63,863 nt of DNA, filler included, from Psammoneis japonica (GCA_008632985.1; 3 parts of 3 records of this genome joined end to end with filler, not necessarily neighbours in it), one strand, 5' to 3'; positions 1 to 63,863 are shown, counted from the whole stretch's first letter. Numbers and translations are program-made. Notes: a model not told the origin generated them from the letters alone.

Positions 1-283
1 AATCATTTTTTGGCATGCTCTTTGTGAGCCATTCTCATCACTTTGATTTGTTGATGAAGTCCATTGCAACACCAGACCAACAACAAAGATGCAGCAGTGG
101 CACCATCAGTGCAGTGCTGGGTGAGTGCACTGGTGGTGCATCAAAGTCCTCATTGGGTGCAAAATTGTGGGCAAGACCCAGTGGATTCTCAGGATCAAAG
201 AAGGGATGGGCAGTTGGTGGCCAAGTTGTCACCAACAGGAGGAGGGGATGTGGCATCTGCTGGACATGACATCAAAGATGCAT

Positions 284-446
284 CAAGCCACTCAGCTCAG
301 AAGAACAATGATAGTAGCACCAACATCATGACACAAGTCTTTTGGGCTCCTGTGATGGCATCTGCATGAACACTCATCTGCTGTTTGGCAGACAGCAGCA
401 ACAAGTCATTGTTTTCTTTCAATTGCTTCATCTTCATTTTTTGTCA
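284..446 (+). mobile_element. Degenerate partial CoDi LTR
   Basis: Aligns by eye to the 3' two-thirds of the LTR at 8438-8683 (caagccac...ctcatctgctg...cttcattttttgtca), heavily mutated. Confidence 0.65.
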
Positions 447-2473
447 CCAAGCATGGCACCAGCAAGTCCAATTCAGGCAAGGCCTCTTCCAAAGTGAAGA
501 AACCCAGTGTTGCTGCAATGCCCTCCCCCATTTGGTGATAAAGGGTTGACCCACAGGGAGCACAGCCCTCACAAAAGGGGCAGGAAGGAAGGTTGACATC
601 ACACTCCATGAACTTGCCAACCATGAGCTGACAAAGAAGTCACATGATGATGTTGATGCTCCAAACCAGGATGGCATGCACATGGATGATGACACACGTG
701 ACAGCAATGATGTTGACAAACTTGCATCAGACAACCACCTGGGTGAAGTGGACATTTCTGACAACAAAGGTGTCTCATCCAATGAGTCCAACATGGCAAC
801 CCCCTGTGAGTGCACTAAGAAGCACTTGTCCAAGCATCAGTGCAAGAAACTGGCTGCGTGCATGGACAAAGCAGCTTCAGCTGCATGCACTGACAAGCAT
901 GTGTCTCACCCAGCCAAACCACTGGACAAATTAACTGTGGCCCCTGAGTCATTTTTCAACTTTCTCTTTAGTTCAGAGGAACATCTTCAGAGCTCCCCCA
1001 CGTGGACAAAAGTCATGAATCTTGACAATGGCATGTCCTTGACAAAAGACTTCACCCAAGTGCATTCAACAATTTCATGTGTCTTGCAAACCTGCTGTGG
1101 GACAGACACCCCCAGACCACCAAATGCAGCAATGACCAGACATCCATGCATTTTGCGCAATGCATGCTCAATGCCCCCCACTTGCAGCCCCTCATGTGTG
1201 ACAAAGAGTTACATCAGGTGATTGCATTGGACAAAAACATCATGGAACATTTTTACAAGGATGGAGCAGTGCACTTCTGCTGTGGCTTTAAGAAGCTCTT
1301 TCAGTTTCCTCAGATGCATGTGTTGACCACATTCATTGACAATTGTGACAGCAATGTCAATGCCTGCATGCTTAAGATCAAGCAGCACCTCTGCACGATG
1401 ACATGCTCAAGGGCACCCTTGTTGAGAAAGCTTTCAATGAGCTTCAAACTGTCTCTGGCAAGTTGTTTGCAACCAAGACCAATTGGACATGCGCTTGAAG
1501 CACCTTGGGTGGACCATTGAGACCCCATTCAAGGAGGCCAACTGCCTCCAGATGGGTGTCAAAGCTTGCTTCCTCACTTTCCAGAGCTCCCTCCAGCAGA
1601 GCTTCCATCTTGAACATTGTGACCATTGCAATTGCCATGGACATCAAGGTTGTGGACTTGTTTGTGAACACAGTCATGGCAACCCTCGTGGCTGCACACC
1701 TTGCCATGGATCTTCACTGTTCTTGAGCATTGAACCTGAGAAAAAGAAACAAGAAAAGGAGTGGGAAGAAAAGACTTGGTGTTGGTGTGACACTTGCATG
1801 ATGTGCTCCACTGGCCACGGCACTGGCACCCATGATGAGCACATTGCCTCCAGCCCAAATCTGGACTTGATTCTAAGCATCATTCCAAGATCCAGTTGGA
1901 CATGGATGAGTTGCAGAAAATTGCTGCCAACTTGTCTCTGTCCCAATCCAATGCCTCTCTTGAACAAAAAAGGAGAGGAGGCAACTAGAAACTTCCAACA
2001 TGCCAAACAACTGGGGATCCAGTTTCATTCCATCTTTTTTCCTGGATTGGTCAAAATGAAAGTAAAAGTGTGAAACTGTCACCACAAATTATAAAGTTGC
2101 ACCAACAAAGACATGGTGTGGTGGGAGAGATCATTGACAATGCTTGTAGATTGGAGACAGCTTTTCAAAACCAAGGATGATTCAACTGTGGCAGCCATGT
2201 GCAAGCCAAACCACACTTGATGTCTGTTTTCATTGACCAACCAGACATGGCTCAGCTGGCAAGGTGTGTGAGACCACTGTTGCCAGGATTCCTGAAGAAA
2301 ACAAGGAGTTGCCAAATGTCCCAGCAGAAGGTGCTGCATGCTTGGCAGATGAGGTGCCTGCCCTCACGTCCAATGAGATGCATGATCTGATCATTGACTC
2401 AGGCACATCTGTCACAATTGCAAACAATGAAGATGAAAAAAACACCAAACCCAATTTAAAGTGATGTTGCACC
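447..2473 (+). pseudogene. Decayed gag-protease region of a Copia-like LTR retrotransposon
   Basis: Fragments KTWCWCDTC...GHGTGTH (gag Cys/His knuckle-like) and LIIDSGTSVTI (aspartic protease DSG motif); many stops and frameshifts; TpA/CpG depleted. Confidence 0.45.
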
Positions 2474-4090
2474 TGACAGAAATTGAAGATGACTGAGTGG
2501 AAGAAAACAACAACTCCTTGCTGCTGTCTAAATGGCAGATGAGTCTCCATGCAGAGACCATCACAGGAGCTGAAAGACTGGTGTCATGACATCGGTGCTG
2601 CTGTTGTCATTCTTGTGAGCCGTGTGGCTTGAAAGCAAACTACATTGTGCATCACGAGTGGAACTAAGAGCACACATAATCATGTGTGATAAACTAAAAT
2701 CTTGTTCAAATCCTGTTTTGAGGTCAGATTGGTTGAAAGCCTTGGGATTGAAGTTCCAAAACATTAGAGGACGAAGGAGGTTCCAGACCTGGGAGTAGCC
2801 CCAGTGCTTGCTGAGGATGTCAGCTGGGTTGCGGGAACCTTCAATGAAATGAAACTTGAGGAAACTGGAGGCAATTGCCTTGTGTGCACAGTGGAACAAG
2901 AGGGTGGTGTGTCGCTTGTGTAACTTAGAGTGTGGGATGGCAGCACCATCCACAACCCACTTGTTGTCCCCAAACATGTAACATGCTTCACGAATTGGGA
3001 TGCCAAGGCAAGGTAAAGTGATGCACAGATCAATGATCTGCTCAACACATGTCCTTGCAGCAACAAACTCAGATCCACACGTGGCAGTCTCGATTGTTGC
3101 TTGTTTCTTGGAGAACCAATCAGCCGGAAACTTGTTGAGGAAATGAATGATGCCCATAACAGAATGTCTGGTGAGCATGCAATGGAACAAGTTTGTGTCG
3201 ACGTAGTGAGTCATGGTGACAAACTTGCCAAGTGCCTCGGGTGCATCTTGTGGGAGCAGCTCTTATGCCTCCCCATACACAGATTGAGCCCAGTCATGCA
3301 TGGGCTTGGGGAGGTCCGAACAGTCTGGTTCCTTGGTGTGCACTTGGAGGGCACCATGTTGCATCTTGGAGAGGAATCCGCAGACACATTTTGCACGGTC
3401 TAGGTGGCCTTGACGGGGTGCTGCATGGAAGCTAGACAGGGACATGATGGCCGCAGCAATGTCAATGCAGCCAAGGGACACAGCCCATTGCAGGGAGCCA
3501 TTCAAGGATTGGAATTGGTGGATGCCATCCGGTCCAAGTAATTCAGAGGTGTCGAGCTCAGGGTGGTCTCCCTTGTCAAGAGGTGAAAGCACGTCAGTAT
3601 GGGGCTTCTCAAGAGGCATGCACAGTTGTCAACCATGCGCTCAATGCACTTGTAAGGAGCAAGGCGCAGGGTGCCATCTGGATCACAGGTGAAGTCGCAA
3701 CCAAGATGGAACTCCAATGGTCCAGTGCCCTTTAGCTTGAACTTGCATTTCTCCATGAGAGTGTCTACAAAAGCCTGGGGGTTCTTCATGGTGAAGGCCA
3801 GGTCATCCACACATGCTGCCACGCACTTACAGTGGTCACCATTCCCACACAGCCAGATGTCGGGTTCGGCTTTGCACGGGAAGAAAAGCAATCGGCAAAG
3901 AGCTCCGGCCTCAGTCTCAAGGTCTGTTGCATCTCCCCACTTGCAGTGGCCATTGCACTCATCAGGGGCCAAGGAGTGCCTGCAATCTTGTGGCACTTCA
4001 TGCCCACACTTGCATTGTGGTGCAGTGCAAAATGAGCACAGCTTGGCTTGGATGGTCATGCAGAATGGCTTCTTCTGGTGCAGAGCTATA
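2474..4090 (-). mobile_element. CoDi (family A) 3' fragment: RT/RNase H remnant plus 3' LTR (2474-2716)
   Basis: Reverse-complement match to about 13650-15723; motifs ACVDDLAF (from YVDD) and NPADILSKHWG; internal deletions remove part of RT and the PPT. Confidence 0.9.
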
Positions 4091-4182
4091 GTCCAGAAGT
4101 GTTTTTACAATTCTGTGTGCATTCCAATTGAAAGTACCTGCATGTTTTCAATGCCAGGTTCCCCGTAGAACAGCCAACCACC

Positions 4183-5949
4183 ATGGCATCTTCTTCCGTC
4201 ACTGACGGCAGCCATTCCCCACCCCGTTGTGATGGTGTGACTATGGCCGATGACATTGCTGCCGACCAATCATCCATCAAGCCTTCTTCCAAACCAACAG
4301 AGCGTCAGTTTGAGGAACTAACCCTTCGTTTTGATGTCAGTGGTCCAGAAGCGTTGTGCAAGCCGATGACTCTTGTTGCCGCTCATTTGCAGGTCCTTCA
4401 ACAAATTCTCTTCACCCACTGCAAGGACGTGAAGATCATGGACAATAACAACAACCAAATTACACACGTCAACGTGGCCGAATGGGTGTCTTCTCTTCAA
4501 CACGAACGACATTTCGTTATTTCAACGACTTGCAAAGGTGAAAAGCGCCCTGTGACTCACCGCTCATGCCACCGGATCTTTACAAAAATTCCTCTTCGTG
4601 ACATTTGCTCTCATCCTCACGTCCAGAGCATTTTGGATTCTAACAACATGGGTATGAAACGTCATTTTTGGAACGAATCAGATGTCGAAACGGCCTCCCC
4701 AGCATACTACATTGCTGCCGCGACTAAACATACTCCCGTCGACGAAGCTACAAAAATGTTTCTCCGAGATCTTGGGAAATGCCAGACAAAAATGCCAAAG
4801 TTTAGGTTGGTGCCCACCTCTATTCGTGCCGATAACAAAGGTCTTGCTCCTCCCCTCCGTGCTGCTGCCTTCGCCATTGAGGTGTTAATGGAGGACTGTC
4901 GCTCTGCCGGAAAGGCCTTGCTTTATGCGCCAGAAAAGTTCCCGACACACATCGTTATGGCCAAGACCCGGCACATCTCCCCTCTCGCCTTTTATAACGC
5001 GGTCAAAATCCAGGCTCATTGGAACGAAGATACTTTCGTCGTTCCGCTGTTGAACACTACTCTGGACATCATGTTTTACTTTGAGAATCAACTCAAGGCA
5101 CTAAAAGACATGAAAGCAATCTTCCCATCAAGCACCACTGCCGGCCAACACAATATCCTCGTCAACCGTCTCGAGTTCAAGTCTGCCAGGGCTGCCATTT
5201 CTACATGCGTCATGAACCTTATCCCAACAATTTCGAAAGAAGCCTACCCCACTCCACTCTTTAGGGATCCTCCTCAAGTCTCTGGCATGCTAGAGGAGAT
5301 GTCGGACACTAGCAAGTCCATTGTATCGGCTAGCATCCGCAGCCTAGAATCTCTTACCTTTTCCGACGTTTCGCCTTTGACAGACAACCAAGCTTCAGGA
5401 ACTCACCAACAACCACCACCGTTAAAATCGGCGGGCCGCGGTTGCGCTGGCAGAGGTCGAGGTTTCCCAGGCCGTGGTGCTCAACAAGGCTCAGCTGTTC
5501 CTCCCCACATCTATGCCCTCTGCTCCCAGAACTCGCCCTCGCTGCCCGGGTATCCCAGTTACCCCGGCATGATTTCTCCTCTGCACTCGTACGCACAGGC
5601 CACCCAGTCGACCGCCAGTTCCATTGCCTCCGTACAGCTGGCTGACGTCCAACGAAACATGTCTCAGATGCAAGAGAAAACCGAGAAAGCCTGGGAGGAT
5701 CTACGTTCACAACACTCACGAGACAATGAGGCGATTAACAATGCATTCACGCAACAACATGCGCAGGACATCGCTGCGTTACAGGCTCAGTGCTCTCAAC
5801 AACTTGCGGGTATGCAGGACCAGATGAATCAGATAGTGCAACTGCTCCAAGCGAATCAACCAGCCCAAACATCAGCAAGGAAACGTCCAAATCACATGGA
5901 CACACCGGATCATTCGGCTGATTCACGAGACAAGGAGAAGGATTTTTAG
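4183..5949 (+). CDS. ORF1 of Ambal-like non-LTR retrotransposon
   Basis: Uninterrupted 588-aa ORF with RGG stretch and Gln-rich coiled-coil C-terminus, directly upstream of an APE-RT ORF2. Confidence 0.7.
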   Translation: MASSSVTDGSHSPPRCDGVTMADDIAADQSSIKPSSKPTERQFEELTLRFDVSGPEALCKPMTLVAAHLQVLQQILFTHCKDVKIMDNNNNQITHVNVAEWVSSLQHERHFVISTTCKGEKRPVTHRSCHRIFTKIPLRDICSHPHVQSILDSNNMGMKRHFWNESDVETASPAYYIAAATKHTPVDEATKMFLRDLGKCQTKMPKFRLVPTSIRADNKGLAPPLRAAAFAIEVLMEDCRSAGKALLYAPEKFPTHIVMAKTRHISPLAFYNAVKIQAHWNEDTFVVPLLNTTLDIMFYFENQLKALKDMKAIFPSSTTAGQHNILVNRLEFKSARAAISTCVMNLIPTISKEAYPTPLFRDPPQVSGMLEEMSDTSKSIVSASIRSLESLTFSDVSPLTDNQASGTHQQPPPLKSAGRGCAGRGRGFPGRGAQQGSAVPPHIYALCSQNSPSLPGYPSYPGMISPLHSYAQATQSTASSIASVQLADVQRNMSQMQEKTEKAWEDLRSQHSRDNEAINNAFTQQHAQDIAALQAQCSQQLAGMQDQMNQIVQLLQANQPAQTSARKRPNHMDTPDHSADSRDKEKDF

Positions 5950-6249
5950 ACAGGGGTTGGACTTCGCCGCCTCCACCCCCTCAGACCATCAGGCATCCAC
6001 CTGACATCTCATCTCCTCCAAATGACTCCCTCACCATCTCCCATTTATTCCGCCGCACTGCCAAGCACCGCAAATTCTCCTACAATGCAGCATCACCCGA
6101 TAGTCAGAGCTCTTAGCCCCAGTCTTCTCCTTGGAGGAGCATGGCCCCAACATGAGTAGTGACTCCTTTAGTGCATCCTACATTAACGAATGGCAATCAC
6201 TCCTGAATGGCACCAGCAATGCAGCGTCAAGCACTTGAAGCATTGATTT

Positions 6250-8437
6250 TTCTCGGCTAACATCCAACGATCCTGTCGGAGATGACCTTCGTCCGAAGTT
6301 ACCTCTCATCATACTCGACTATACGCATTCAACGCCAACGGTTGTGAATTCGACAAAAGAGGTGGTGACATTCGCGAGTGTTGTCAAATAGCAAACGAGA
6401 TCCAAGCAGACGTCGTGGGCATTTCGGAAGTCTGTCTAGACACTATGCAGTATGATGTTCTCTCAGTGTGTCGATCTACTGTACACAATACAATTTCTAA
6501 CGGATGTGGCACCTTCTCATGCAGCTCTACCCCCTTTACTACTCAGTACAAACCTGGTGGTACGGCCCTCTTGTCGGGGAACTACATCTTGGCACGATGC
6601 CGAAGCCAAGAATCAGATCCACTGAGCCGTTGGTCTATTCAGATCTTCGACGGTCGCAATGGTAAGCAAGTCATGTTTATTTCGTGCTACAGAGTTTGTG
6701 CGAAAAATCAAAGGACCCCTGGAAAGACTACGGCACATGCACAAGAACAAGCAGCCCTTTTACAACAAAATGGTGGACAGTCTATTGACCCCAGGAAGGC
6801 CTTTTGTACGGATTTATCTCGCCGCCTACAAGAGTTCTTGGTCGACTCAAATCGCGAAGTTATCATTTGCGGAGATTTCAACACTGACTTCTCGGTTGAC
6901 ACGGACACTCTCGCCTCCCTCGCACAGCGTTTTACCCTTTCGGACGTGTCACACAACTTGATGGGCAGCACTGAATTTTCCACATACACGCGAGGACGGA
7001 AACGCCTGGACTTTGTGCTTGCTGCCGGTACCCCCGGTGCCTTGTCTGCAGCCAGGTTCAGTGGATATGAAGCATTCGGTTATCGTATTACTTCAGATCA
7101 CCGCGCTTACTTCGTGGACTTTGACACGATGGCCTTGTTTGGGAATCCCACTGTTGACTTACCCAAGGCCAGTCTTCTTCACAACCCCAAGTGACGACTT
7201 ACTTAGATGCCATCGGACCGATGTTAGCCAGCAGACAAATCTTGGCTCGCTCACAGGCACTACTCGACCAAGACGTCCCCAATCATGAACTAGCAGAAAG
7301 GTTAGATCGAGACATGTTACAGTTCTCCTTGGCTGCTGCTAAGAAGTGTCGGATCCACCAAGAACCAGAGTGGTTGGTCGAACTGTCACAACTGCAGCAC
7401 CAAGTTTATATCCTTAGCCGAGTGGTCTCAATGATGCATGCTCGCCTGGATCAAGTCAGCCATATCCGCACTATCCGAGACAAGCTACAAGGCTCCTTTG
7501 CCATCCCAGACACGCTGGAGGGATGTCTGCTTGCGCCTCGCGCCGCCCAAGCTGAATGTAGACAAGGTGCTGCTGAGAGCGTCGTACACCGTGAAAATGA
7601 AATGGCCGAGAAGATTGCCTCACTAGAACTGGAAGGCACAAAGGAGTCAAAACAGAAAGCAAAGATTATAAGAAATGTCCGCAAGGCCAAAGAAACCAAG
7701 AAACTTTTCTGTAAGATTGAATGCTGCAAACTGGATAGTGACAATGGAGTCAACAGCGTGCAGGTACCCCGGAATCCCACGGTGAATCCCAAAGAGTGTG
7801 AGGACTGGGTTACCATTGATGCCCCAGATGATGTGGCTTCCGCCATCTGCCACCGTAACCAGTGCCATTTCGGTCAAGCACACGGAACTCCTCCTGCTGT
7901 TCCTCCACTGTCCGTCGACCTTGGTTATGAGGCAGACACGATTTTCGCCGATCTAATCTTAGACGGTGAATACGACACCACCCAACTCAATGAGGCCACG
8001 TCTTGCTTTATTCAGCACCTCGAACGTCGTTCCCCGGTTGCCGTCTCCTCTTACCTCACGGCCAATGATTTAGAGGGTAAGTTAAAGTCATGGAAGGAAA
8101 CCACCTCTACGTCCATAAAGTCAGGATTGCACCTCGGTCATTGGAAGGCCATGCATGCTTCCCACGCTCATTCTTGTGCCAAGACAAAGGATGGAGATCC
8201 GTCGGAGGCCTGCATCCACCTAGATAATGTGCAGCAGACCTTGATGCAAATCCGGCTCAATCTGCTCAATTATGCCTTGCACTGGGGACACTCCTACGAC
8301 CGATGGAGGGACATTGTAAATGTGATGATATTCAAGGAAGCCGGCAATAACAAGATCCATTGTTTGCGCGTTGTTCACATCTACGAGGCAGATTTCCAAC
8401 TTATCTCAAGTGTCCTATGGTGTTCGTTGGCTCAGAA
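6250..8437 (+). pseudogene. ORF2 N-half of Ambal-like non-LTR retrotransposon (apurinic endonuclease plus pre-RT), frameshifted and cut by a CoDi insertion
   Basis: APE motifs FNANG, GISE, GGT, IICGDFN, TYTRGRKRLDFV, SDHR; RT-entry motif FKEAGNNKIH.LRVVHIYEAD. Confidence 0.88.
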
Positions 8438-8683
8438 TGACAGGATTTGAACAAGACTTTAGTTTGTCACACACAATTATGTGTGCTCTTAGTTCCGCAT
8501 GCATCGCGCGATGTAGTTTGCTTTCAAGCCACATGGCTCACAAGAATAACAACAGTAGCACCGATATCAAGACACCAGTCTTTCGGCTCCTGTAACGGTC
8601 TCTGCACGGAGACTCATCTGCTATTTAGACAGCAGTAAGGAGTTATTGTTTTCTTCCACCCCAGTCATCTTCATTTTCTGTCA
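8438..8683 (+). repeat. 5' LTR of CoDi-A
   Basis: Direct repeat of 15479-15723 with TG...CA ends. Confidence 0.97.
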
Positions 8684-8700
8684 GATTAACAGTCTCGCTC
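8684..8700 (+). promoter_or_regulatory. Primer-binding site complementary to a tRNA-Asn(GTT) anticodon arm
   Basis: gattaacagtctcgc immediately follows the LTR; reverse complement GCGAGA-CTGTTAA-TC; conserved at 22059-22075 in family B. Confidence 0.65.
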
Positions 8701-9125
8701 ATTCTTACCCATTGAGCGTTCCTCATCGTCATCAAGAAATTTTCAATGATGCGCACCCTTGGCGGTGGAAGTGCGTGTCTACCTTTTTCACTGCTGGACA
8801 CTGGATTAAATCTACACGTTTGGATTTATCCAATGCCTCCCATCGTTGGATATATTTATTCAACGGATATTTTTTGACCAGGAATTCCCGAATTCTCAAG
8901 CATCCGAGATTCCGGATTCCTCACAGCGGATCCTACTAATCCGTCCGCTCGCGTCCACGCGCACACGATATAAACCCTTGACTCTGGCCCTGCTCTACGC
9001 ACGCCAAGTCTACCGCCTTGTATCTACACCGGATTGCTGGTCTTCTACAGTTCTACAAGGTCCACGAGGACAACTGTGAGAGGAAGCAGTTCGTGATTAC
9101 AGCCTACGTTGGGGCGAGGGTGCAT

Positions 9126-9511
9126 GACGCGTTCCAGGTCTAGGTGGGACCTGGTACTACTGAACTGTGACATCGACAGTTTTTTGAATCTCGTCGTATG
9201 TCGCGCACGTAGAATTCTACGTGATTTTTTGACATTTTGTGTCATTTTACGGTACACTTATTGAGCGATCCGTCCAAAAACTTTTGACATTTTTTGTTAC
9301 AGCGCGATTCTATAATGTCTTAGGAATTGCGTAGGGCAGGTGCAATTGCAAAAACGTCGAGTGGTAAGAGGCATAATTGTACCACAAACTTGGCCGTTTA
9401 TTTGATGTTGATAAATATATGCACTAATTAAATTCTCGTACTACGGAGCTCGCACGTAGAATTCTACGGGCCCAATGTCACACGGAGTCCCACCTAGGGC
9501 TGGAACGCGTC
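9126..9511. mobile_element. MITE (386 bp) inserted in the CoDi-A 5' leader
   Basis: TIR gacgcgttccaggtctaggtgggac / gtcccacctagggctggaacgcgtc; 4-bp TSD GCAT; the homologous family-B leader (~21525-21560) has the empty site. Confidence 0.92.
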
Positions 9512-9905
9512 GCATTTCCCACGTTTGTTCGTCCCTCCACAGCGCCAAATTTGGCCGGCCTGATCGGGTTATCCAACCGATATAAAATAAGAACGGTTCG
9601 GAGGTCTTGTCCACCTCTAGTTAGCTTGTCAGCAGGGGTTTTTAACCCATTACTCCGCTATCAGGCAACCCAAAGCGTCACCAGCTGCGGGTTCGGACGT
9701 GCCGGCACAACCCTACGGACCGGATAGGAAGCTTAGCACTTAACTACGAACGGGGTGTCACAGCCTGGCGGCTTCTGACTCTTAAGATCGTTCAAGACAT
9801 CAAGTCAAGATTCAAGTCAAGTTTCAAGTTATTTCAAGTCAAGTTTCAAGTTGTTTCAAGCCCACACTCCGGTTTAGCTAGTTCCGACATCCACCTAGTT
9901 GCAAC

Positions 9906-27950: not shown

Positions 27951-28059
27951 TGTGACAAGAATTCTGGTTTCTAAAAAAAGAACACCATCGCGCATTTGTG
28001 CTCTGAGTGAAACAGTCTCATAAAATTTCACAACACACCAAACATCTACCTCAAGTGCT

Positions 28060-29947: not shown

Positions 29948-29949
29948 CC

Positions 29950-51742: not shown

Positions 51743-52298
51743 AAATTACAACAGTACACTGTCTCTTGCAAACAATATATCAATACAACACAAAGATCAG
51801 GTCTCGGAACACCCACACACACAACAAAGATCCTTCACAATTTCCGTCGTTTTTTCTGTTCTCTGTCGGCTATCATTTTTGATGGCTGCCAACAACGTCA
51901 CGTGTGAGTTTGTCTTTGCGGTGGGTGATCTAACTCATAGAGCACATCAGCCTATTGAGACGTGAAAGCAGGAAAGTTACTTTTCTTAGCTATCTACTCC
52001 TACTCTGAACTCTAGTAGTAGAGTAGCAGATAGAGTTCTCCCTTGAGGCCCTACAGTACGACGATCTCCATTCTTCGCCACTGTGAATTTCCCCAAGATC
52101 TCCTCAACTTCCGTAGGAACCTTCTTGACAGGTGTGGTTTGACCGGCTACTTCCTAGCTAGCTTGGTGTACGATAGGACAGGGTGCTTCAACATGTCATG
52201 CTACACCTACTGAGACGAAACTATTATCCATTGAAAGCAAACGTTGTCCAAGCGCCTTAACAAACTATGTTAGCAATCCCTTGATTCCGTCTTTCACT

Positions 52299-53318: not shown

Positions 53319-53746
53319 GGTGGGGGCGAATGTCGTTGTTTACTGTTTTCTGCAGAGCAAAGTGTAGAGGCACACAAAATGTGGTCGAGAGAATTTTATG
53401 AGCACTCTGTTCCTCTCAACTGAGCAACTCACTATGTGCATTGTACTGAAGCCCACAGTGTGTCAGTAGGGCCCCGTAGAATCGACGGAAAAACGGAACA
53501 AAAATAGTTGCTGCCATTGCTGTTGGATTTGATTTTGGATTTTTGTGAAAGTTTCAAAAGTATTTTGCGGTCTGTCCATCGAGCGATAGCGAACCGCAGC
53601 AGGAATAAAAACGACCATAACTTCGCTATCTCTACTGTAGAGAGTAGAGCAACAAGATAGAGCTAGTGCTTTTAGTCATCCGTACATTACTTTTTATGTT
53701 GCTGTGTACTTTTCGCAGAGTCGACAAAGTTTCAACAAGAACTATA

Positions 53747-55433
53747 CTACCAAGATTCCCACGAAGAGAATGGCCGGTTGGAGGTATCCTTGGATTTGGT
53801 CCGTGAGGGTTCGTCGGCGATCATTATTGCGGTCGATGAGCGAAGGAGATCAGTGGAAGACCACGCCATTCGCGAAACAGAAGAAATAGCCTCAGCAGCT
53901 CTTATGCCTCCTGTGATAATCTGCACCGCCACACCCGCCTCTGCAAGACCCATAACTGCAACAGCTCCTCCCAAGACAACGGGAGCAACAATAGTTCCAG
54001 CAACTCCAACCGTAACTGCAGTAGCTAGAGACTTGATTTTGGCTTGTGTTACCTGACGAGGTAGACATGGTTCCAGACACCAGTGTGTGCCCGTATTAGT
54101 ATCATCTTTTACTGTAGAAAGGTTTCCATTTTCTGAACATGACAAATAACGATTGTGGGCTCTGGAAACCAAGCAATGGCCACCGTTTGCCGACTCTTCC
54201 AAAATCCACTTGTGATCATCTTTAGCTTCGTTCTTGTCACGTAAGGGATTAGTACCGTACACCTTACCATTCTCGTTGGATGCCAAGCACTCTGTCGAGC
54301 TTGGGATATCAATAGCACCACTCCAGGCTCGTTGGTGTTTTCAAGTTTCCACTCTTCGGCCTTTTTTCGAAGCGGAAAGCTCGTTGTATAAATATCGGGA
54401 CCACGTACATATGGGCCTTCGGAACCAATGCGCTTTCCATCTCTATCACACAAGAGATAATAAGTTTGCCGATGTGCCGATTCAAACTGCCAAATACAAG
54501 AGTCGTCAAAGAGAAACTTGGTGGTGCTGCTGGTTGAAAACTCGACTCCTTCATACTGAAGAATCCTACTGTGCCTAACGGATTCAATTACAACGCCATG
54601 ATGTCCAGAAGGGGCCTTCTTTATACTCCAGAGAGAATTGTCGTATTCTTCTTCTGACGTGTAGACCTTGCCTGCTTTGTTGGAACAGAGAAATTTTTCA
54701 CCGTGTGCATAAGGTGATATGCGCACGTGGCCACTGTCCGTCTTGGCAATCCGCCATGCTTCCCATCCCTTGTAATTTTTATTCATGGAAAGATTGCCAA
54801 GTATATCGCATCTGATGCGTAAATCAAGAGAAGGAGACGTGATAAAGCAAAGTTCACCACTATTGAACGACACGCGCCAAGTTTCGTTTGGTCCGCCGGT
54901 GGGTTGGTCCGTAGACGGATCGTATTGCTGTCCGGATCACAGACCAATGTCCTGCCAGACATGGCCGATATAAAATAAATCCCACCACTCTGTGCGTCTT
55001 TTACAGCCCACTTGTCGAGCATCTCAAAATGATTCTTTGCCGAGTAAACATTGCCCTTGTCGTCAGAGCAAAAGTACCCGTCATGTTTGGTAGACTGGAG
55101 AACAACCGTGCCGTCACTCTCGGGAATAAGGACAAACTCATCGTTGGCTGATCTGGTGTTTGATAGAAATGCCCCTCCCTTTGAAGTTGTGCATAGTGTC
55201 TTGTTGTTACACGAAAAGACACAGCGAATCGGTTGTTCAGTGCAAGGAAAGTCCATGACTATGCGCCGAACAAAGCTAGAAACGCATTCCACAGTCTGGT
55301 CCTGGTTGTCAACCTTGACTACAGTGACATCTTCTTTCTCTTCCACAGCGATTAGATCCTCTTGCTGCTTCCTAAGTCTACTTGCATCGGGAGGCATGGT
55401 GTTTGGCTCGATCGAAATGTTCTGATCCTCCAT
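53747..55433 (-). CDS. Fascin-like beta-trefoil repeat protein with hydrophobic C-terminus, split over three frames
   Basis: Repeated YL.S...G.V......W.L/I units; frame switches near 54880 and 54290. Confidence 0.65.
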
Positions 55434-55729
55434 GTTTGTTCTTAAGACATGTTGATGTCCCGCGATGCGTTGGATGCGAAAAAGTGAGACAAAATTTTGA
55501 TCAACTTCGACGTCCGTTGAGTCGTATGAAATTTATTCATATTTTAAAATAGTATATATGATTTCAGCTTGACGTACAGTACGTCATCATCCCTGCGCGC
55601 GGTCTCTGTGAAGAGAAAAATAAGAGCTCGACCAAATGTTCCTCACATTTTTTCTTCGTGTTCTTTGTTCCTCACTTTTTGCCGGCACTTTCGCTCGTCC
55701 CGCGACGCCATGGCACAACTGCGTCGACA

Positions 55730-57010
55730 ATGAGAAGGTCAAGCGCTTCTTGCAACGCTCTATCATCGTTAGGAGGTAAAAGCGTCGATATACGAGTAGT
55801 TCCTCCCAAGCGACAGCTTCTTTCCGTTTGTGAATCGTCGCCATGCTTATATCACGAAGGACTACTGTTGGAGCCCACGTCACTGTTTCTTCAAAACAAC
55901 GAAAAACTGCACTTGCCTTCCGAACGACTTGATGAATATTTGCAGAGTATTCCTAGAGTCGCTTCTCGCTCGGAAGAGGTGTTGAAATCAGAAACAAAAG
56001 ATTTGTTGGAGAATGACAAAGTTCGATGCTTGAATGTACTTCAAGGAGAAATTGCTCATGCGACTCGTAAAGAAGCAGACGTCTTGTGCAGTGCTGAAGC
56101 GACGACATGTCATATTGTAGCGTTATACAGTAATTCTGCTTCGCCTTTACAAAACACTTTGCCATTGGCAAGCCTGACCCATGTTGACAAGGTGGGATAC
56201 GATGCTTGTTTACAACGAATGGTACAGGAACACATCAAACATCATAATGCGGATAGCGGTGACGACAATTTCGGCTTTTTCTATGATGAGGAAAGCGAGG
56301 AAGGAACAGAAAACTTTGTGCCGTTAACTGACGTATCTTCTGATGAACCTACAAGGAACGAATCGCCTTCTACAGCGGAAGCGGTGCCATTGATTGAAAT
56401 CGAAATCCATATGCTCGGAGGTTTTCTTGATGACAATGGCAAGTCTCAAGAGCTCTCGACTTCCCTACTCCTTGCGTTTTCCAAACTTGCAAAGAGATTT
56501 GAGGACACGGTCAAGATGAAGATCGTAACTGCTGCCATTTCATGCATGAATTCTTGCGCGGAAACCTTTTCTCCTCTTGGCCGAGGCCTTGGAATAGATG
56601 TTCGAACGGGACATGTCTTTACGGTAAACTCTGTTCCTTCGCAGCTGGCTGGACCTGCACTGCAAGTACGATCTGCACGTATCTTTCGCTCCGACAGGCA
56701 CCGCGAGGAGAAACTTCAAGTCATTCACCATTCCACCTCGAATGGCCAATTGTGTATTGAACCGTTCGATTATGAACACTTTCACCAGCTCGATGCTCTT
56801 GCCAGACTGCCGGATAAAACATTGTTACAACTCACATCAACCTCACCAAATGTGGAAGGAGAGGGATTTTGCGAATCAATACGAAGCACAATTGGGTTCA
56901 TCAAGCGAGTGCCGAGCTGCGAAGTCTTTGGAACTCGCTGTGACGAGCCTCTTCTGTACCGACGAACCAAGAGTAACACTGCACTCAACGATTGGGCCTT
57001 GTGCACATGA
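55730..57010 (+). CDS. NTAN1: Protein N-terminal asparagine amidohydrolase
   Basis: VLQGE.A, S.EATTCHIV, LTHVD, IHMLGGF.D, TSTSP.VE...F; start codon uncertain. Confidence 0.88.
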   Translation: MRRSSASCNALSSLGGKSVDIRVVPPKRQLLSVCESSPCLYHEGLLLEPTSLFLQNNEKLHLPSERLDEYLQSIPRVASRSEEVLKSETKDLLENDKVRCLNVLQGEIAHATRKEADVLCSAEATTCHIVALYSNSASPLQNTLPLASLTHVDKVGYDACLQRMVQEHIKHHNADSGDDNFGFFYDEESEEGTENFVPLTDVSSDEPTRNESPSTAEAVPLIEIEIHMLGGFLDDNGKSQELSTSLLLAFSKLAKRFEDTVKMKIVTAAISCMNSCAETFSPLGRGLGIDVRTGHVFTVNSVPSQLAGPALQVRSARIFRSDRHREEKLQVIHHSTSNGQLCIEPFDYEHFHQLDALARLPDKTLLQLTSTSPNVEGEGFCESIRSTIGFIKRVPSCEVFGTRCDEPLLYRRTKSNTALNDWALCT

Positions 57011-57663
57011 TATCTGTACAGTGAAAGAATTCTCTTGCCTGTTTCCCCGTCCTATTAAAAAGAGGGCGAGTGGCCACCAATTTTGAATATCTGGAAGCTG
57101 AGGATTTTGCTACGAGACTCGGCAGTTTTGACATTTTTAATTTTCCATGCACATAAATGTAATCCGCGTCATGATTATCTCGTGTCCAGAAAGCCATTAG
57201 CTGGCAGCTCAGTCGGACATACGAACGAAAGTTCGAAGAAAGGCCTTCGCTTGCTAGAGTGTTCCTGTGATTTGATGCGGCGTCAGAGCAACCTCTGCCT
57301 GAGCCACTCGAGGCATCGAAAAGTTCACACGAAGCAGCAAAACATGTACTGTTAGATGCGGTACATATTATTCTAGAAGAAGTTGAAACAATGATAGAGA
57401 CAGACATACTGTAGGAAGATGATAGCTAGAGAGCATAGTAGCACAGACGGGCTCAGAGCTGGCTTGGCTGGGCTGGATGGGTTTTGGTGTGGCATAGTAG
57501 CACACGAGACCACTTCCGATGATAACCCCGCTGAGATACCGTACTCCGTACTGGTATTTATTCAGCGATGAGCTTGTTGACTTTCGACAGATATCTAGTC
57601 TAATAGCAGGGCCCCTACATCACACCAAACACCAAGAAGAGGACAAAGAGAAAACAAAACAGC

Positions 57664-59140
57664 ATGCCATTTCTCATTGTTGAGAACCATGAGGGTGAAC
57701 GTGGACGACTTGAAGTGTCTGAGGATGCAACACTTTCTGATGTGCGCGAACAGATTGTTCGGGAAGTGGAACACGACTTTGTTCCAGGAGAGGACTTAAC
57801 TTTTACTTCCGAGACGATGATGACTCTGAAGACGAAAGGCTGGTCCGGATCTTTCGAGACCACGAGAGAAATACAAGGCTTTGGATTTCAAAAAGAAAAA
57901 TCTGACGCTGTTGGGAGCCAAGCGACGCAAGTTGGATGAAGTCAGCGATGATTCGACCCAGGTTGCGGCTGCAATCAAGGTTGAAAACAACGAAGTGGCA
58001 CCACTCGGCGGAAACAAACGGCAACAGTCACTTCACATGAAGAGCAGGATAGCTCTGTCTTTTATGCCGGAGATGGCGTTGATGCGGATGATGACACTGA
58101 AGAAGCAAAGATCAAGGACGAATTTGAAAATGAAACTCCCGATACTACTGTTGCTGGTGGCGGAGACGTAAAAGTCAAGGATGAATTCGAAGAGCGAAAG
58201 AAGCAGCGCAAAGCATTGTACAAGCGATACCAAGACAAACTCTTGCTGCATCGCCACGATCCTATGAGCATTCCAAGATTGGGCGGAGGTGTGCAAGATA
58301 CATTTGTACGCCCAAGAAAGAAGCATCCCAACGTTTTTGACGCACGAGGCAGCTTGAAAAGCACCTACCCAGTTCCAAAGTTCGTGGACGTTGAAGAGTT
58401 TGATGTCACTAAGAAAGACTCCATGCTTCCCTTCACCTACACATGCTACAGTTCCTTGTGGCAACCCAATGGTCCCAAATACGCTGGGCAGCCTAGAGCA
58501 GCTTTGGACGCCATTCCAAAATACTTTGAGGAGAGCGGTGAACCGTTTCCTGTCTTCATGAAACGCAGCTTGACCGAAGGAGATGCTGACAACGAGGGTC
58601 CATTGATAGGCTGGGAGTATGTGGGCAACTACAAGGTTACAAACATTCTTGACGAGGATGATAAGTTCTGGGAAAGCGCTCGTAACTTTTCGAATGCCAG
58701 CAAGAAGGAGATAGCGAAGAAGCATTGTGAATCTACCAGATATGGTCGTGAAAGATTGGNTTGGCGAGCCAGACTAATGGATGAACTTGAAAAGGATCCC
58801 AGTCCAGCAGCTCCTCAACACCTTGTTGAAAGACGCTGCCCAACTGAGATGGAGAGAAACGAGAAACGACCGCCCATGGCAGCACGAGCACGAGCTTTGG
58901 GATTTCAACCCAACATGGACAATGAGGAGTTGTCAAAGCTGCTGGTCGAGTTGGATGAATTCCATGTGCAAGTTCCGGTTGCTTTTGACGAATATGATGA
59001 ACGTATTTATGAATATTGCAACGGGTTTTCAGAGTCTAAATTCTCGCGGAAAAAACGGAAACGGCGGACAACTTCGTCCGGGCGAAGAACCGGCCAAGGC
59101 TGTGGATTGGTACAATTTTGCCGGAGACGAAAGGCTTGAT
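57664..59140 (+). CDS. Hypothetical protein, central domain resembling DUF6697; several frameshifts
   Basis: W.P.GP...GQP, PFPVF, WEYVGNY motifs spread over ORFs 57664, 57881 and 58216. Confidence 0.5.
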
Positions 59141-59394: not shown

Positions 59395-59494
59395 NNNNNN
59401 NNNNNNNNNNNNNNNNNNNNNNNNNNNNNNNNNNNNNNTTAATTAATTAANNNNNNNNNNNNNNNNNNNNNNNNNNNNNNNNNNNNNNNNNNNN
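59395..59494. other. Assembly gap with six-frame-stop linker
   Basis: N-run with central TTAATTAATTAA. Confidence 0.98.
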
Positions 59495-59814
59495 GAGATG
59501 CGCGCAACTCTCGAGTCACACACATTGGTCACCCAACTTGCGGGCCATTGCCTCCGCCCCAACAGCCGAACACACCGTGTTTCTGAGATTGTCAACTTGC
59601 CTTTTTGCCACCTTTTTTGCCCATTCCTCCCAAGTTCCTGACCAATTTGAAGTGTCATGTTGCCACCAGCAATCTGTTTCTGACAAACATTGAGATGCTC
59701 CCATTGCTTGCCAATTCTGACGGGCTGAGAAACTTCACCTGTGGAAAGAGATCATTTCCAGCCACCTTCTCCTCTTCTGGTTTCAGCGCACCATGCGCTG
59801 CCTGCGTGCCCGTT

Positions 59815-60640
59815 CTCTTCAACACTGCCTGAAGTCTCGGGCTGCAGTGCATCCTTGCTCCGAAGAGTGTGCGCCAATGAGGAATGTCCCCATTTGCGTG
59901 GCTGCTGCCATGTGGGTTGATCCAGCCAATGGACAGCCACGCCCACTGCCAGCCCACGAGGCTGTGTTTTTCAGGGAAAGAATGACTGACACCCTGCTGT
60001 GCCCCAGCCAACTGTGAGCAAGTGAGCTGACTGTCCACGACACCCCTCGCCAGTTTGATCCCAACAGCGCGCACTCTGTTGTTTTCCTTGACTTGAAAAT
60101 CAGGGTGCATTTGCGCGCGCAAGGTGTTGCTTTGGTCTTTGACTCACACGAGCTGACTCAGGAGGACATGGAGAACCTCCCTCGGCTGGAACTGACGCCA
60201 TCCCTTGGATGGGAACCTTCTGCTGATACCATGGCGCAAAAGGAGGAAGAGCGCGCATGCGTCAGTGTGTGCCAAGGACCGTCAAAGTCCGGTGGACAGC
60301 TGACAATGATGAGTGCAACCAGGTGCATTGCTTCGGCTTGTTCGTGTCAGACATCCCATCACAATGAGAGCGTCATTGTGGGTGCAAATGACGATGATTC
60401 TCTGCATCGCTGCTTGGCTGCTCAGGCCAGTGCATCTCACAATGACACTGGGGGAGACCGGCCACATGAACGGAACAATCTGGACGTCCACCTGGATTGT
60501 GCCAAGTGGAAAGGGGTGCGTGCACTGTTGACCTTGAGTCGTGCATCGACTGTCACACCGGAGATGCTCTCCAAGAGGTGGAACATTGGTCTGACGGCTG
60601 CCAAGAACACCCTCAGAGTGACGCCCTAGCAGGGGTCCGC
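59815..60640 (+). mobile_element. Decayed Copia-type pol fragment (protease to pre-integrase region), a different family
   Basis: HEAVFF.ERM..TLLCP.QL, VHDTPRQFDP, LELT....WEP, VTPEMLSKRWNIGL.AAK.TL.VT. Confidence 0.75.
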
Positions 60641-60962
60641 AACTTCAAGATCATGGGTTGAGTGAGCACTGGGTGCATGCTCACGGACAGAAGTGTTCGC
60701 GAGCCGGAGGAGTGCTTGGGCACCCAGATCAGAAAGTGCCAGTTGTCTGACTTGGAAAGCAAGGCACGCTGGCCATGTCCTCTGACCTTTGAGTCAAATG
60801 GGCATTGGCTGATGTTGAGTTGGAGCTCAAGCAAATTGACAGGTGTCTTCCGACAAATGCGTCGACGCCCTTGAGCTTGGGAAACAGGCCTGAACTGGAT
60901 GGCTTGAAAGAGTTAAATGCCAAAACGGCCAACTGTCATCAAGGCTTTCTTGGCGTGCTCCA

Positions 60963-61135
60963 AGTTGTTTGTTTTTCTTGAAAAGACATGTTTGTTTTTG
61001 TCAAAAAGACATGTTTGTTTTCCTTGAAACAACGTGTTTGTTTTCCTTCCTTGAAAAGACATGTTTGTTTTCCTTGAAAAGACACATTTGTTTTCTTTGA
61101 AACAACATGTTTGTTCTCCTTTAAACAACATGTTT
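60963..61135. repeat. 23-bp minisatellite block
   Basis: Units ttgaaaagacatgtttgttttcc. Confidence 0.9.
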
Positions 61136-61422
61136 GACGTGTTCCAGGTCCAGGTGGGACCTTGCACTGCTGAACTGTGACATCGACAGGTTTTTGAATC
61201 ACGTCGCATGTCGCGCACGTAGATTTCTACGTGATTTTTTTGACATTTTGTGTCATTTTACGGTGCACTTGTTGAGCGATCCATCCAACAACTTTTGACA
61301 TTTTTTGTCACAGCGCGATTCTACAATGTCTTAAGAATCGTGCAGGGCAGGTGCATTTGCAAAAACGTTGAGTGGCAAGAGGCATGATTGTGCCACAAAC
61401 TTGGCCGTTTGTTTGATGTTGA
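61136..61422. mobile_element. Truncated, hypermutated MITE copy
   Basis: Colinear with 9126-9412; right TIR missing. Confidence 0.9.
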
Positions 61423-61429
61423 AGACAAA

Positions 61430-62785
61430 CACATTGAAAGACCTGATCTGAACCGTCCAATCTGGTGGCTGTTTGTTTTCTTCCTGACATTGTTGTAGAA
61501 TGCCAGAATCGCGCAGGTGTCCGGATTGCAAAAGATTCCACATGTGCGAGCATCTGCCGTTGAAAACCTGTCTCCAACCAACATCCAATTGAGCTCACCA
61601 AAGTTCCTTGCATCAACAGTCCACATTGTTGAAGCACGTCATTTCGTCATCAAACCAGGCTTGAAGCATGTCCAGGAGGAAGTCTCGGAGAGCAGGCACA
61701 GCGTCGATCTTGTTGCAGCAGCATCAAAGACCCTGCAGGAACTTCCTTCTCCACTGTTCATTGTTTGGACACCAAAGCATGTGGTCCCTGTCTTCCATCG
61801 GATGCTCACATGTGATGCGCTGGTGCGGTCGAACTGGGTTGTGTTGATTTGCGATCTTGTCAGTCAGCAGCAAGTCATGGACCAGTTTGACTGTGTCAAC
61901 ATGCTGTTGTGAGTGACGTTTCACCAGAACCGCGTGAGCATTCCAGTCGACAAGGTCAACCACTGAAGGATCCCATTTGTTCCGTTCGACAACATGTTGC
62001 ATCAATTCAGGAGCAGCGGCAGCGCGCCGAATTTGTTTCTTGCAATTCGTTGTGATTGCACCCTCGTCGATCTCCAGATGTGAGAGGCAATGTGGCAGGT
62101 GCTTGACCTGATTTGTGTCGTGCAGGCAATGTCCTTGGCAAGCTCCTGCCAATTTGTCCGCTCGGATGTCAACTCTGGCATTTGACGGCAATGAGTGGAC
62201 GGGAGATTGCCTGTCTTGATGTCCTTTTGCCCATCGCACTGGAGGCAGAGCGAGATTGGCTGCACCCGACAGTTGCGTCAAAGCTTGCTGGGTGTGGAGG
62301 ATCTCATTCAAAATGTCCCAATCTGCAGCAACAGTGTTGGCCCCATGGCAGCGAATGTGAAAGTCGTGTTGCTCGCATGCGTCGTTCTCGGGATCACTCA
62401 CCGGCAGGATGGGAGTCAATTCAGACAAACAGTCAACCAGTGCTTTGTCATCGCAATGAATCACTGCATCCAAAGGAATGGCAACGCGGCAGCATTTGCA
62501 CAGCCGGCAGATGAATCTTGCAATGGATGGAATGCCGCAAGCTTCTGCGTGGTGAGAGGACGGAGTCTTCCCAAAAACTGGCCCTGCACAATCCACTGGT
62601 GGCGTGCCATCCATGGCAATGGTCCACCCAAAGGTGGCTCCTTCTTGGACCGATCCATCACTGCCTGCGGCAAGATGAAACGAAACAAAGTGCAGAACCA
62701 CTGTTCGTGGAGAAACATGAAAGACCAAGTCTTCAAAAGGCACAGATTCCCACTTGTCGAGTCCCTGAAGATGCGACAGAAAGGA
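61430..62785 (-). mobile_element. Ambal-like non-LTR retrotransposon fragment: RNase H and zinc knuckle
   Basis: SDGS...TFGW, SS.(R)AE..G, (Y)CD, DWD, W.KGHQD, N..AD.LA, C....EDRDH..C. Confidence 0.85.
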
Positions 62786-63805
62786 ATGTTTGTTTTCCTT
62801 GAAACGACACGTTTGTTTTCCTTGAAGAGACATGTTTGTTTTCTTTGAAATGACGTGTTTGTTTTTCTTGAAAATGCACGTTTGTTTTCCTTGAAAAGAC
62901 ATGATTGTTTTCCTTGAAACCACATGTTTGTTTTCCCTGAAATGACGCATTTGTTTTCCTTGAAAAGACACGTTTGTTTTCTTTAAAAAACATGTTTGTT
63001 TTCCTTGAAAAGACATGTTTGTTTTCCCTGAAACAACGTGTTTGTTTTCCTTGAAACCACGTGTTTGTTTTCTTTGAAAACAAACTTGAAAACAAACGTG
63101 TCGTTTCAAGGAAAACAAACATGTCGTTTCAAGGAAAACAAATGTGTCGTTTCATGAAAAACAAGCATGTCGTTTCAAGGAAAACAAATGTGTCTTTTCA
63201 AGGAAAACAAACATGTCGTTTCAAAGAAAACAAACGTGTTGTTTCAAGGAAAACAAACATGTCTTTTCAATTGAAACAAACATGTTGTTTCAAGGAAAAC
63301 AAACATTTCATTTCAAGGAAAACAAACATGTCTTTTCAAGGAAAACAAACGTGTCATTTCAAAGAAAACAAACATGTGGTTTCAAGGAAAACAAACATGT
63401 CTTTTCAAGGAAAACAAACATGTCGTTTCAAGGAAAACAAACATGTCGTTTCAAGAAAAACAATCGTGTCATTTCAAGGAAAACAAACATGTCTTTTCAG
63501 GGAAAACAAGCGTGTCTTTTCAATGAAAACAAACATGTCGTTTCAAGGAAAACAGGCATGTCTTGAAAACAAACATGTCTTTTCAAGGAGAACAAACATG
63601 TCGTTTCAAGGAAAACAAACATGTTGTTTCAAGGAAAACAAACATGTGGTTTCAAGGAAAACAAACATGTCTTTTCAAGGAAAACAAACATGTGGTTTCA
63701 AGGAAAACAAACACGTGGTTTCAAGGAAAACAAACATGTGGTTTCAAGGAAAACAAGCATGTCTTTTCAAGGAAAACATGTTTGTTTTCCTTGAAAAGAC
63801 GTGTT
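62786..63805. repeat. 23-bp minisatellite array with orientation switches at ~63080 and ~63778
   Basis: Unit caaggaaaacaaacatgtcgttt and its reverse complement. Confidence 0.95.
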
Positions 63806-63863
63806 CAGTTGGACAAATGCTGTGCGATGATGCTGTGCACAACACATGCCTGAATGTGTGCTG

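Follow-up and report, generated by a model that had tools for sequence, protein, structure and literature searches.

Why do several blocks of a 63,863-nucleotide stretch of the diatom Psammoneis japonica (GCA_008632985.1; the whole stretch is called the window below) contain almost no 5′-TA-3′ steps, when the genes beside them contain many? A preliminary description of this DNA, which is diatom nuclear DNA, had attributed the loss to a repeat-directed hypermutation of TpA to TpG or CpA. Its direction was said to be opposite to that of fungal repeat-induced point mutation (RIP), and it was said to act on silenced repeats alongside the decay of methylated CpG. We conclude, with a probability of roughly 0.85, that a DNA-level, locally targeted mutator changes A:T to G:C at 5′-TA-3′ in silent domains; this figure applies to the process and not to the enzyme.

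Dinucleotide frequencies were expressed as observed/expected ratios (O/E), and the depleted blocks were defined as class I (TpA and CpG both scarce) or class II (TpA scarce, CpG kept). Blocks of 2.4 to 7 kb had TpA O/E values of 0.03–0.10 versus 0.58 in the neighbouring genes, with TG/CA at 1.6–2.0. In 2-kb bins the TpA O/E was 0.01–0.09 at 1–2, 30–36, 40–42 and 60–63.9 kb, where TG/CA reached 1.6–1.9, and 0.5–0.68 in the genes. When the class I and class II blocks were pooled, the values were 0.05 versus 0.57 in genes for TpA and 1.55–1.96 versus 1.14–1.16 for TG/CA. TpA and CpG profiles along the window, a local form of the genome-wide scan that the preliminary description had proposed, showed depleted blocks flanked by normal genes. 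Its estimates of about ten TpA in 31.5–36.7 kb and about six in 39.7–42.9 kb agree with our counts of 11 (31500–36700, O/E 0.033) and 6 (39700–42900, O/E 0.031), as compared with 573 in the gene region 44000–58000 (O/E 0.58).

The change in composition was highly specific. The only dinucleotides lost from the blocks were TA and, in class I, CG, and the only ones gained were TG and CA; AA/TT was kept, with an O/E of 1.24–1.38 in blocks and 1.14–1.17 in genes. For positions 1–2400 the ratios were 0.097 for TpA, 0.067 for CpG, 1.97 for TG and 1.78 for CA, and a long terminal repeat (LTR) relic within this block could be detected only in purine/pyrimidine (R/Y) code, where it is 92% identical to 15565–15733. 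For positions 60000–63863 TpA was at 0.039 and CpG at 0.70; the left edge of this class II block coincides with an assembly gap, so that its position is not assessable. Stop codons were affected in the same way, TAA and TAG falling to ∼1–2 per kb in the blocks (for example 32000–36000) while TGA occurred 23–25 times per kb. TA-free DNA therefore contains many long spurious open reading frames (ORFs) in all frames. Pfam searches with 41 ORFs of the 29.9–36.8 kb block and with the ORFs of the 39.7–42.9 kb block gave no match.

The direction of change was read from the reverse transcriptase (RT) of the Copia elements. We gathered 54 environmental relatives, 42 of which have normal TpA levels and served as outgroups defining 20 conserved tyrosine columns. 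The depleted copies scored were Copia copy A of the window and the environmental loci L016, L034 and L036. Conserved tyrosines had become cysteine or histidine at 45 of 62 positions in the four depleted copies, compared with 21 of 752 in the outgroups (p = 1.8e-43). Control residues in the depleted copies were almost unchanged (Phe>Leu/Ser 0/37, Asn>Asp/Ser 0/19, Lys>Glu/Arg 1/53). Ile>Val/Thr was mildly raised (11/40), as expected from the TpA present in ATA codons and across T|AT codon junctions. Replacement of Tyr (TAY) by Cys (TGY) or His (CAY) corresponds to TA>TG or TA>CA, which rules out the RIP direction for the TpA component. To judge from these alignments, the mutation direction is TA>TG/CA: tyrosine is ancestral in the 42 outgroups and Cys/His is derived, in keeping with the opposition to fungal RIP claimed earlier. 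The less mutated Copia element B already has Cys or His at 5 of the 20 columns.

The preliminary description had also pointed to conserved protein motifs in which tyrosine was replaced, and all of these were located: CVDD at 3802–3813 (minus strand), GHCH at 24758–24769, TCCR at 18121–18132 and DASKH at 25375–25389. The change of YVDD to CVDD is polarised both by the sister copy (HYEYVAVYVDD versus HCKCVAACVDD) and by the 42 outgroups. For GHCH, TCCR and DASKH, we take the ancestral residue to be tyrosine from the conservation of the motifs.

Pairs of related copies within the window give the same picture. Recoding to R/Y raised pair identities from 85–96% to 97–100%, and the divergence is therefore nearly all by transition. 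Copia copy A was 85% identical to element B, which served as the reference copy, and 97.3% identical in R/Y code. The differences (A|B) were TG|CG at 28 sites, CA|CG at 20, CA|TA at 15 and TG|TA at 8, with the opposite TA|TG and TA|CA at only 4 and 3, so that TA conversions were 23:7. At a further 9 + 6 sites one copy read CA and the other TG, as expected if an ancestral TA or CG had been hit independently in each copy; such double differences also occurred between the inverted arms of the largest block (CA|TG 11, TG|CA 13). The two LTRs of element B were 93% identical in nucleotides and 99.2% in R/Y code. The partial second gypsy copy and 22958–23489 were 90% and 98.9% identical, respectively, with TA|TG at 8 sites and TA|CA at 1 versus one reverse change (CA|TA).

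The LTRs of the non-autonomous element C (18483–22352) had been described as differing at about 10 bases, 7 at ancestral TpA and 2 at CpG. The pair was 96.4% identical with 10 differences, all transitions (R/Y code 100% identical), and in an alignment of six LTRs (A2) 6–7 of these fell at ancestral TpA and 2 at CpG. The diagnostic site was also confirmed, with TG at 18572–73, CA at 22165–66 and TA retained by the sister LTRs (8593–94 and its partner). Over the six LTRs, polarised by a deliberately conservative within-family majority rule, changed site-copies made up 19 of 161 at TpA (11.8%), 10 of 183 at CpG (5.5%) and 16 of 1193 elsewhere (1.3%). The odds ratio for TpA versus other sites was 9.8 (p = 7e-10), although around half of the 16 ‘other’ changes are mis-polarised TG/CA sites; in total there were 43 transitions and 2 transversions. 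An excess at TpA over other contexts, as the earlier proposal predicted, is thus present in the LTRs, and the comparison of TA with AA contexts points the same way, AA/TT and asparagine codons both being spared. In the 42-bp array of element C, an internal TA could be followed over 22 units: it was TA in 5, TG in 7, CA in 6 and another dinucleotide in 4.

Two further pairs extend the pattern beyond retrotransposons. The two copies of a miniature inverted-repeat transposable element (MITE) have 25 mismatches over 287 aligned bases (0.913 identity), of which 13 are TA to TG/CA, none are the reverse and 5 are at CpG, exactly as had been described; the mutated copy retains 5 TA compared with 18 in its sister. 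The other pair consists of a conserved diatom gene and its pseudogene copy. The parent ORF has 27 homologues, the full-length matches being 44–55% identical and including Chaetoceros proteins (48–53%); the parent has a TpA O/E of 0.45–0.75 and is covered by a contig from run X2 (39083–39632). The pseudogene is ∼70% identical to it in nucleotides and 86% in R/Y code. Of 34 alignable parental TpA, none were kept in the pseudogene, 10 having become TG and 15 CA. In the 39065/41330 alignment of this pair, 27 parental CpG were lost (CG|TG 16, CG|CA 11), one site was opposite, and there were no TG/CA>TA changes. Because the LTR pair within a single element has diverged and targets that are not retroelements are affected, the change is made at the DNA level; TG and CA outcomes both occur, so that both strands are hit.

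Loss of CpG is a separate process nested within the same domains. CpG O/E was 0.16 in the class I regions (1–2.4, 32–36 and 39.7–42.4 kb) but 0.66 at 29.9–32 and 59.5–63.9 kb, although TpA was equally gone there. At the block edges TpA density switched within a few tens of bases, whereas CpG recovered several hundred bases farther inside, and the TpA-poor domains are broader than the CpG-poor cores. Both single losses were found among the 54 environmental Copia relatives: three (L016, L034 and L036) had a TpA O/E of 0.13–0.31 with CpG at 0.74–0.80, and others (L005, L025, L032 and L049–L052) had CpG at 0.13–0.30 with normal TpA. The existence of both TpA-only and CpG-only loss shows that there are two processes, and loss of TpA where CpG is intact shows that it is independent of CpG deamination. 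Per site, TpA had changed about twice as often as CpG in the LTRs. Ordinary 5-methylcytosine (5mC) decay would account for the CpG>TpG/CpA component: besides the low class I ratio and the TG|CG and CA|CG differences of Copia copy A, this copy has Cys, His or Gln in place of Arg at 12 of 14 positions. DNMT5a-dependent CG methylation of transposable elements is documented in Phaeodactylum (PMC9998398). Such decay explains the CpG loss in class I blocks and in Copia copy A; it cannot yield TA>TG/CA, and the proposal of a second mutator is upheld.

The TpA that survive in the blocks are not a random sample. Survivors were said to tend to lie in TTA/TAA contexts, and such contexts were indeed enriched: TTAA made up 16 of 50 survivors compared with 30 of 657 TpA in genes (p = 7e-9), and no ATAT, GTAC or GTAT survived. 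A similar enrichment of TTAA was seen in the environmental depleted loci (11/88 versus 393/8860, p = 0.002). We then scored hit rates over six pairs with a clearly mutated copy, counting the adenine on either strand of a TpA as a separate target. The rates were 37/68 for TAC, 19/43 for TAT, 10/50 for TAG and 11/49 for TAA (3′ A versus C + T, p = 0.001). The preferred target is probably best written as 5′-TAY (5′-RTA if the thymine is attacked), with TTAA spared.

Contigs assembled independently from a public short-read run (X1) cover 30 of 30 bins of 29948–49947 at a depth of ∼53–62. Read-derived contigs thus reproduce the blocks, which are therefore not an assembly artefact. Most of the worst-hit DNA is at a single-copy depth of ∼60, like the genes. 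Contig depth on the inverted arms of the largest block (31282–32615 and 35284–36617) alone reached 200–850, and the arms therefore belong to a multi-copy family in the genome. The description of the process as repeat-directed is not supported by the single-copy depth, nor by the pseudogene, which has lost every parental TpA while the parent 2.3 kb away is untouched. The related statement that the process acts on silenced repeats holds in so far as silenced mobile DNA is affected, on both strands; the pseudogene of a host gene is affected too. The last TpA before the 39.6-kb block is at 39632, where the X2 contig of the gene ends, and the next is at 41008; dense TpA resumes at 42882–42941 and the next X2 contig begins at 42899. 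X2 cover was absent over 30.6–36.6 kb and almost absent over 40.0–42.6 kb, which we did not use as evidence of silence. Targeting thus looks domain-directed, the affected stretches being silent DNA bounded close to where transcripts end. Sparing of the parent gene by purifying selection is an alternative to domain targeting, and homology sensing, which may still play a part, fits no better.

We compared the window with the contigs for signs of continuing activity. Among the 40 differences listed, out of 106, most lay at CpG-type sites, with TG/CA>CG at 13 and CG>TG/CA at 6; TA>TG/CA occurred 5 times and the reverse twice, though the blocks hold few TpA. Mutation at TpA is possibly ongoing.

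Four other explanations were weighed against a DNA-level mutator of A:T at TpA. In the nearest of these, it is the thymine that is modified, a TET/JBP-type oxidase producing 5-hydroxymethyl- or 5-formyl-uracil (5hmU, 5fU) at TpA that is read or repaired as C, with the mirror motif 5′-RTA. As TpA is palindromic, all of the counts fit T>C too, and the sequence gives no preference over deamination. Dinoflagellates carry 5hmU preferentially at TpA and TpC, where it is linked to transposon silencing; we know of no modification of the 5hmU/5fU type at TpA in diatoms. The authors of a study of the rhizarian alga Bigelowiella natans, discussed below, favour deamination, which they too put forward as a proposal, and we consider thymine modification unlikely. 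Editing of transposon transcripts from A to I at UA by an ADAR-like or ADAT2/3-like enzyme, fixed by reverse transcription, would produce one-sided outcomes of the kind seen in Copia copy A, where Tyr>Cys occurred at 8 of the 12 conserved columns covered and Tyr>His at none, and where 14 successive conversions lay on the same strand (P = 0.04; 0.05 when pooled, driven by that one pair). The other depleted loci are two-sided, with Cys/His outcomes of 6/9 (L034), 8/4 (L036) and 6/4 (L016). Moreover, targets that are not retroelements are equally hit, including 13 of 18 TpA in the MITE, all 34 in the pseudogene and the satellite-adjacent DNA, and an element's own LTRs came to differ once it had inserted, so that ADAR-type hyperediting does not describe these changes. 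The 3′ preference of ADAR also differs from the 3′ pyrimidine seen here. An RNA stage is thus a decidedly poor candidate for the whole pattern, though it could contribute to Copia copy A.

The preliminary description had itself suggested WA>WG errors of the DNA polymerase eta (Pol-eta) type, recruited by T:G mismatches from 5mC deamination. The coincidence of TpA and CpG loss in class I blocks would fit this model, which requires that TA and AA are both targets. However, AA/TT is not depleted in the blocks and no asparagine codon (AAY) among 19 gave Ser or Asp. Furthermore, TpA has gone where CpG is kept, both in the window (29.9–32 and 59.5–63.9 kb) and in L016, L034 and L036, and the TpA-poor domains exceed the CpG-poor cores in width. 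We regard the model as very improbable and abandon it. Least credible of all is that no mutational process acted here, the blocks being a library or assembly artefact, foreign DNA poor in TA and CG, or the result of RIP-direction TpA gain in the ‘normal’ copies. The MITE pair taken alone is not polarisable, and the 500-bp interval holding the TpA-rich copy (9001–9500) has a TpA O/E of 0.95, which exceeds the gene background. Against this, the X1 contigs carry the blocks at normal depth, homologous pairs within the window convert site by site, 42 outgroups fix tyrosine as ancestral, and it is the copy with the intact ORF that is TpA-rich.

Returning to the proposed mutator, it would convert A:T to G:C at 5′-TA-3′ on either strand, producing TG or CA, and the domains attacked would comprise LTR retrotransposons, a MITE, satellite-flanked DNA and a pseudogene. 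Over time nearly all TpA would be removed, turning Tyr codons into Cys or His and erasing TAA and TAG stops. Deamination of 5mC would act separately in narrower cores of the same domains, and with TpA and CpG both being lost, the two palindromic YpR steps would end up as TG/CA. Targeting may follow a chromatin or small-RNA mark, and the process may serve genome defence.

Several observations weigh against this account or narrow it. The one-sidedness of Copia copy A and its same-strand run are hints of a single-strand or RNA-stage component. In alignment A2, column 43 is C>T at CpA by majority polarity, a RIP-like direction, and the adjoining taa>tgg change requires a step outside TpA; more generally, a few changes run in the RIP direction or fall outside TpA and CpG. 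The palindromic target means that A>G and T>C lesions fit the counts equally. The X1 contigs are probably from the same sample as the assembly, and the case for domain targeting is built on four block edges, with an assembly gap forming one of them. The process is inferred from 64 kb and 54 short environmental contigs.

The chemistry of the lesion can be considered in the light of known adenosine deaminases. In nature TadA acts on U-A-C, the early base editors derived from it favoured YAC, and tRNA deaminases act at U33-A34. TadA and ADAT2/3, fungal ADAT-based mRNA editing and ADAR hyperediting all require or prefer a 5′ T/U and have A>G chemistry. The YAC preference resembles the TAC > TAT > TAR order observed here; unlike the activity proposed here, these are RNA enzymes in nature, and we know of no DNA-acting adenosine deaminase in diatoms. 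By analogy, a TadA/ADAT2-like enzyme, or some other polynucleotide deaminase that works on DNA, may turn adenine into hypoxanthine at these sites; this is our best guess, made tentatively.

The preliminary description knew of no earlier account of the process. The same TpA-only hypermutation has in fact been described in B. natans (Mettrop et al., bioRxiv 10.64898/2026.01.13.699255). According to the main text of that preprint, 231 of 302 nuclear point mutations in mutation-accumulation lines fell in integrated nucleocytoplasmic large DNA virus (NCLDV) and virophage sequence, and 230 of these 231 were A>G/T>C, which the authors place at TpA. Mutation there ran ∼1000-fold above background, and the activity was seen in some lines only. 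RT and DDE domains were over-represented in clusters poor in TpA and rich in TG + CA as well as in TpA-poor coding sequences, and the authors propose an ADAT2-like deaminase (10.64898/2026.01.13.699255). The likeness is close. In both cases A>G/T>C occurs at TpA alone, gives both TG and CA and is confined to foreign or mobile regions; in the window the changes are near-exclusively of this type, with CpG transitions as a separate added component, and they are restricted to TpA in silent or mobile regions and absent from neighbouring genes. On the sequence evidence, B. natans-type TpA hypermutation thus appears to extend to a diatom as a process of the same kind. The differences are that B. natans is a rhizarian alga in which mutation was measured in accumulation lines, whereas here it is deduced from the DNA of a stramenopile, and that the B. 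natans targets are an NCLDV and a virophage insert, whereas in the window LTR elements, the MITE, satellite-flanked DNA and the pseudogene of a host gene are hit. Depletion is also deeper in the window (O/E 0.03–0.05 versus a rho of 0.45 for the B. natans NCLDV region as given in the main text). The terms CpG, flanking bases and diatoms each have no occurrence in that main text. No account of such hypermutation in a diatom came up in a literature search, with subscription journals and the supplements of the B. natans preprint outside its scope, and a term search of a recent diatom transposable-element preprint (2025) found nothing on it.

Fungal RIP is similar in that irreversible transitions at one dinucleotide accumulate in silenced or duplicated DNA, leaving skewed blocks that are read as defence. 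It differs in that RIP, the work of a RID/DNMT4-type enzyme in a premeiotic stage, creates TpA from CpA (in some basidiomycetes it acts at CpG), whereas here TpA is destroyed and A or T is attacked, not C. The TpA component runs opposite to such C>T/G>A changes; the CpG component alone is C>T, and 5mC decay accounts for it. RIP also strikes both copies of a duplicate, whereas here one of two gene copies was mutated, a soft distinction as selection on the parent could mask it.

What is added here is a deeper footprint, new target classes, the TAY/TTAA motif and the nested relation to CpG decay. If the reading is correct, a mutator known from one rhizarian preprint operates in diatoms, which are major phytoplankton, where it works on ordinary transposons and pseudogenes and does so near to completion; it would then be a general genome-defence mechanism rather than the curiosity of one strain, its footprint being found in environmental contigs as well. 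The motif provides a sharper target for testing candidate deaminases, and a natural, motif-specific DNA adenine deaminase would interest the base-editing field. In such genomes, bias would enter gene prediction, repeat detection and the dating of transposons by the divergence of their LTRs, TA-free DNA giving long false ORFs. More speculatively, and in our view rather doubtfully, the process could be an old and possibly SAR-wide (stramenopiles, alveolates and Rhizaria) heterochromatin-coupled DNA adenine-deaminase defence common to diatoms and chlorarachniophytes, in which T-A-Y would echo the U33-A34 site of ancestral tRNA deaminases that gave rise to the enzyme and which, together with 5mC deamination, would form a two-armed ‘YpR sink’. 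Such a sink, if it exists, would irreversibly scramble DNA in silent domains, including transposons, viral inserts and stray gene copies, through the loss of Tyr codons and of TAA and TAG stops.

Table 1. Positions of the depleted blocks, mobile elements and other features in the window
Feature	Position	Strand	Details
Class I block	1–2457		LTR relic inside at 283–456
Copia copy A	2473–4108	−	LTR 2473–2716; RT relic 3505–4104; partly hypermutated; RVT_2 E 2.4e-4
Copia element B	8435–15723	+	LTRs 8435–8684, 15476–15723; RT ORF 13480–15033; RVT_2 E 3.7e-26
MITE copy, TpA-rich	9125–9411	+	18 TA
Family-C LTR, third copy	16676–17010	−	∼55 bp internal sequence; 95.8% identity to 18483–18815
Gypsy RT/RNase H fragment	16978–18456	+	RVT_1, RT_RNaseH_2; TCCR at 18121–18132
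Non-autonomous LTR element C	18483–22352	−	LTRs 18483–18759, 22075–22352; 42-bp array 19317–20278
Gypsy element	22299–27971	+	RT 24365–25018; RNase H 24991–25665; integrase 26835–27971 (Pfam)
Second gypsy copy, partial	28455–29847	−	TpA-depleted, CpG kept
Assembly gaps (paired 44-N runs)	29848–29947; 59395–59494		Single Ns at 19713, 58760
Largest hypermutated block	29948–36780		TpA-poor throughout; CpG-poor core ∼32.0–36.0 kb
Inverted arms in largest block	31658–32285 / 35870–36491		71% nucleotide, 88.8% R/Y identical
Parent gene copy, conserved diatom gene	38729–39643	+	ORF 38828–39475 (+), 216 aa; uncharacterised; full-length relatives in Chaetoceros
Class I block	39633–42900		Contains pseudogene copy 41048–41957
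Class II block	59495–63863		Mutated MITE copy 61135–61422; 23-bp satellite 60966–61136, 62779–63778 (TRF period 23)

As a whole, Copia and gypsy LTR elements lie nested in the left 43 kb of the window, together with an ORF for an endonuclease resembling that of a long interspersed nuclear element (LINE), the MITE and unrecognisable relics. Ordinary genes fill 43–59.4 kb, and the right end (59.5–63.9 kb) is satellite-rich. The LINE-like unit (4132–8447) has ORFs of 605 and 430 codons, both without a Pfam match, and an Exo_endo_phos endonuclease ORF at 6286–7191; its TpA and CpG are near normal. One example of a spurious ORF, 475 codons long, overlies the satellite at 61727–63151 on the minus strand.

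Among the genes is an N-terminal asparagine amidohydrolase ORF (55658–57010), whose best-matching named relatives are from Seminavis and Amphora (38–40% identity), with unnamed relatives at 66%. A tandem repeat of ∼30 bp at 45700–45895, seen both in sequence and in R/Y self-matches, lies inside or beside a Glyco_transf_15 gene on the minus strand. The X2 contigs omit 59 bases (43603–43661) and 86 bases (44385–44470) with GT..AG ends, which are likely to be short introns in the DUF6824 gene region and its neighbour. Run X2 is listed as ‘DNA?’, yet with these spliced-type skips it resembles a transcriptome.

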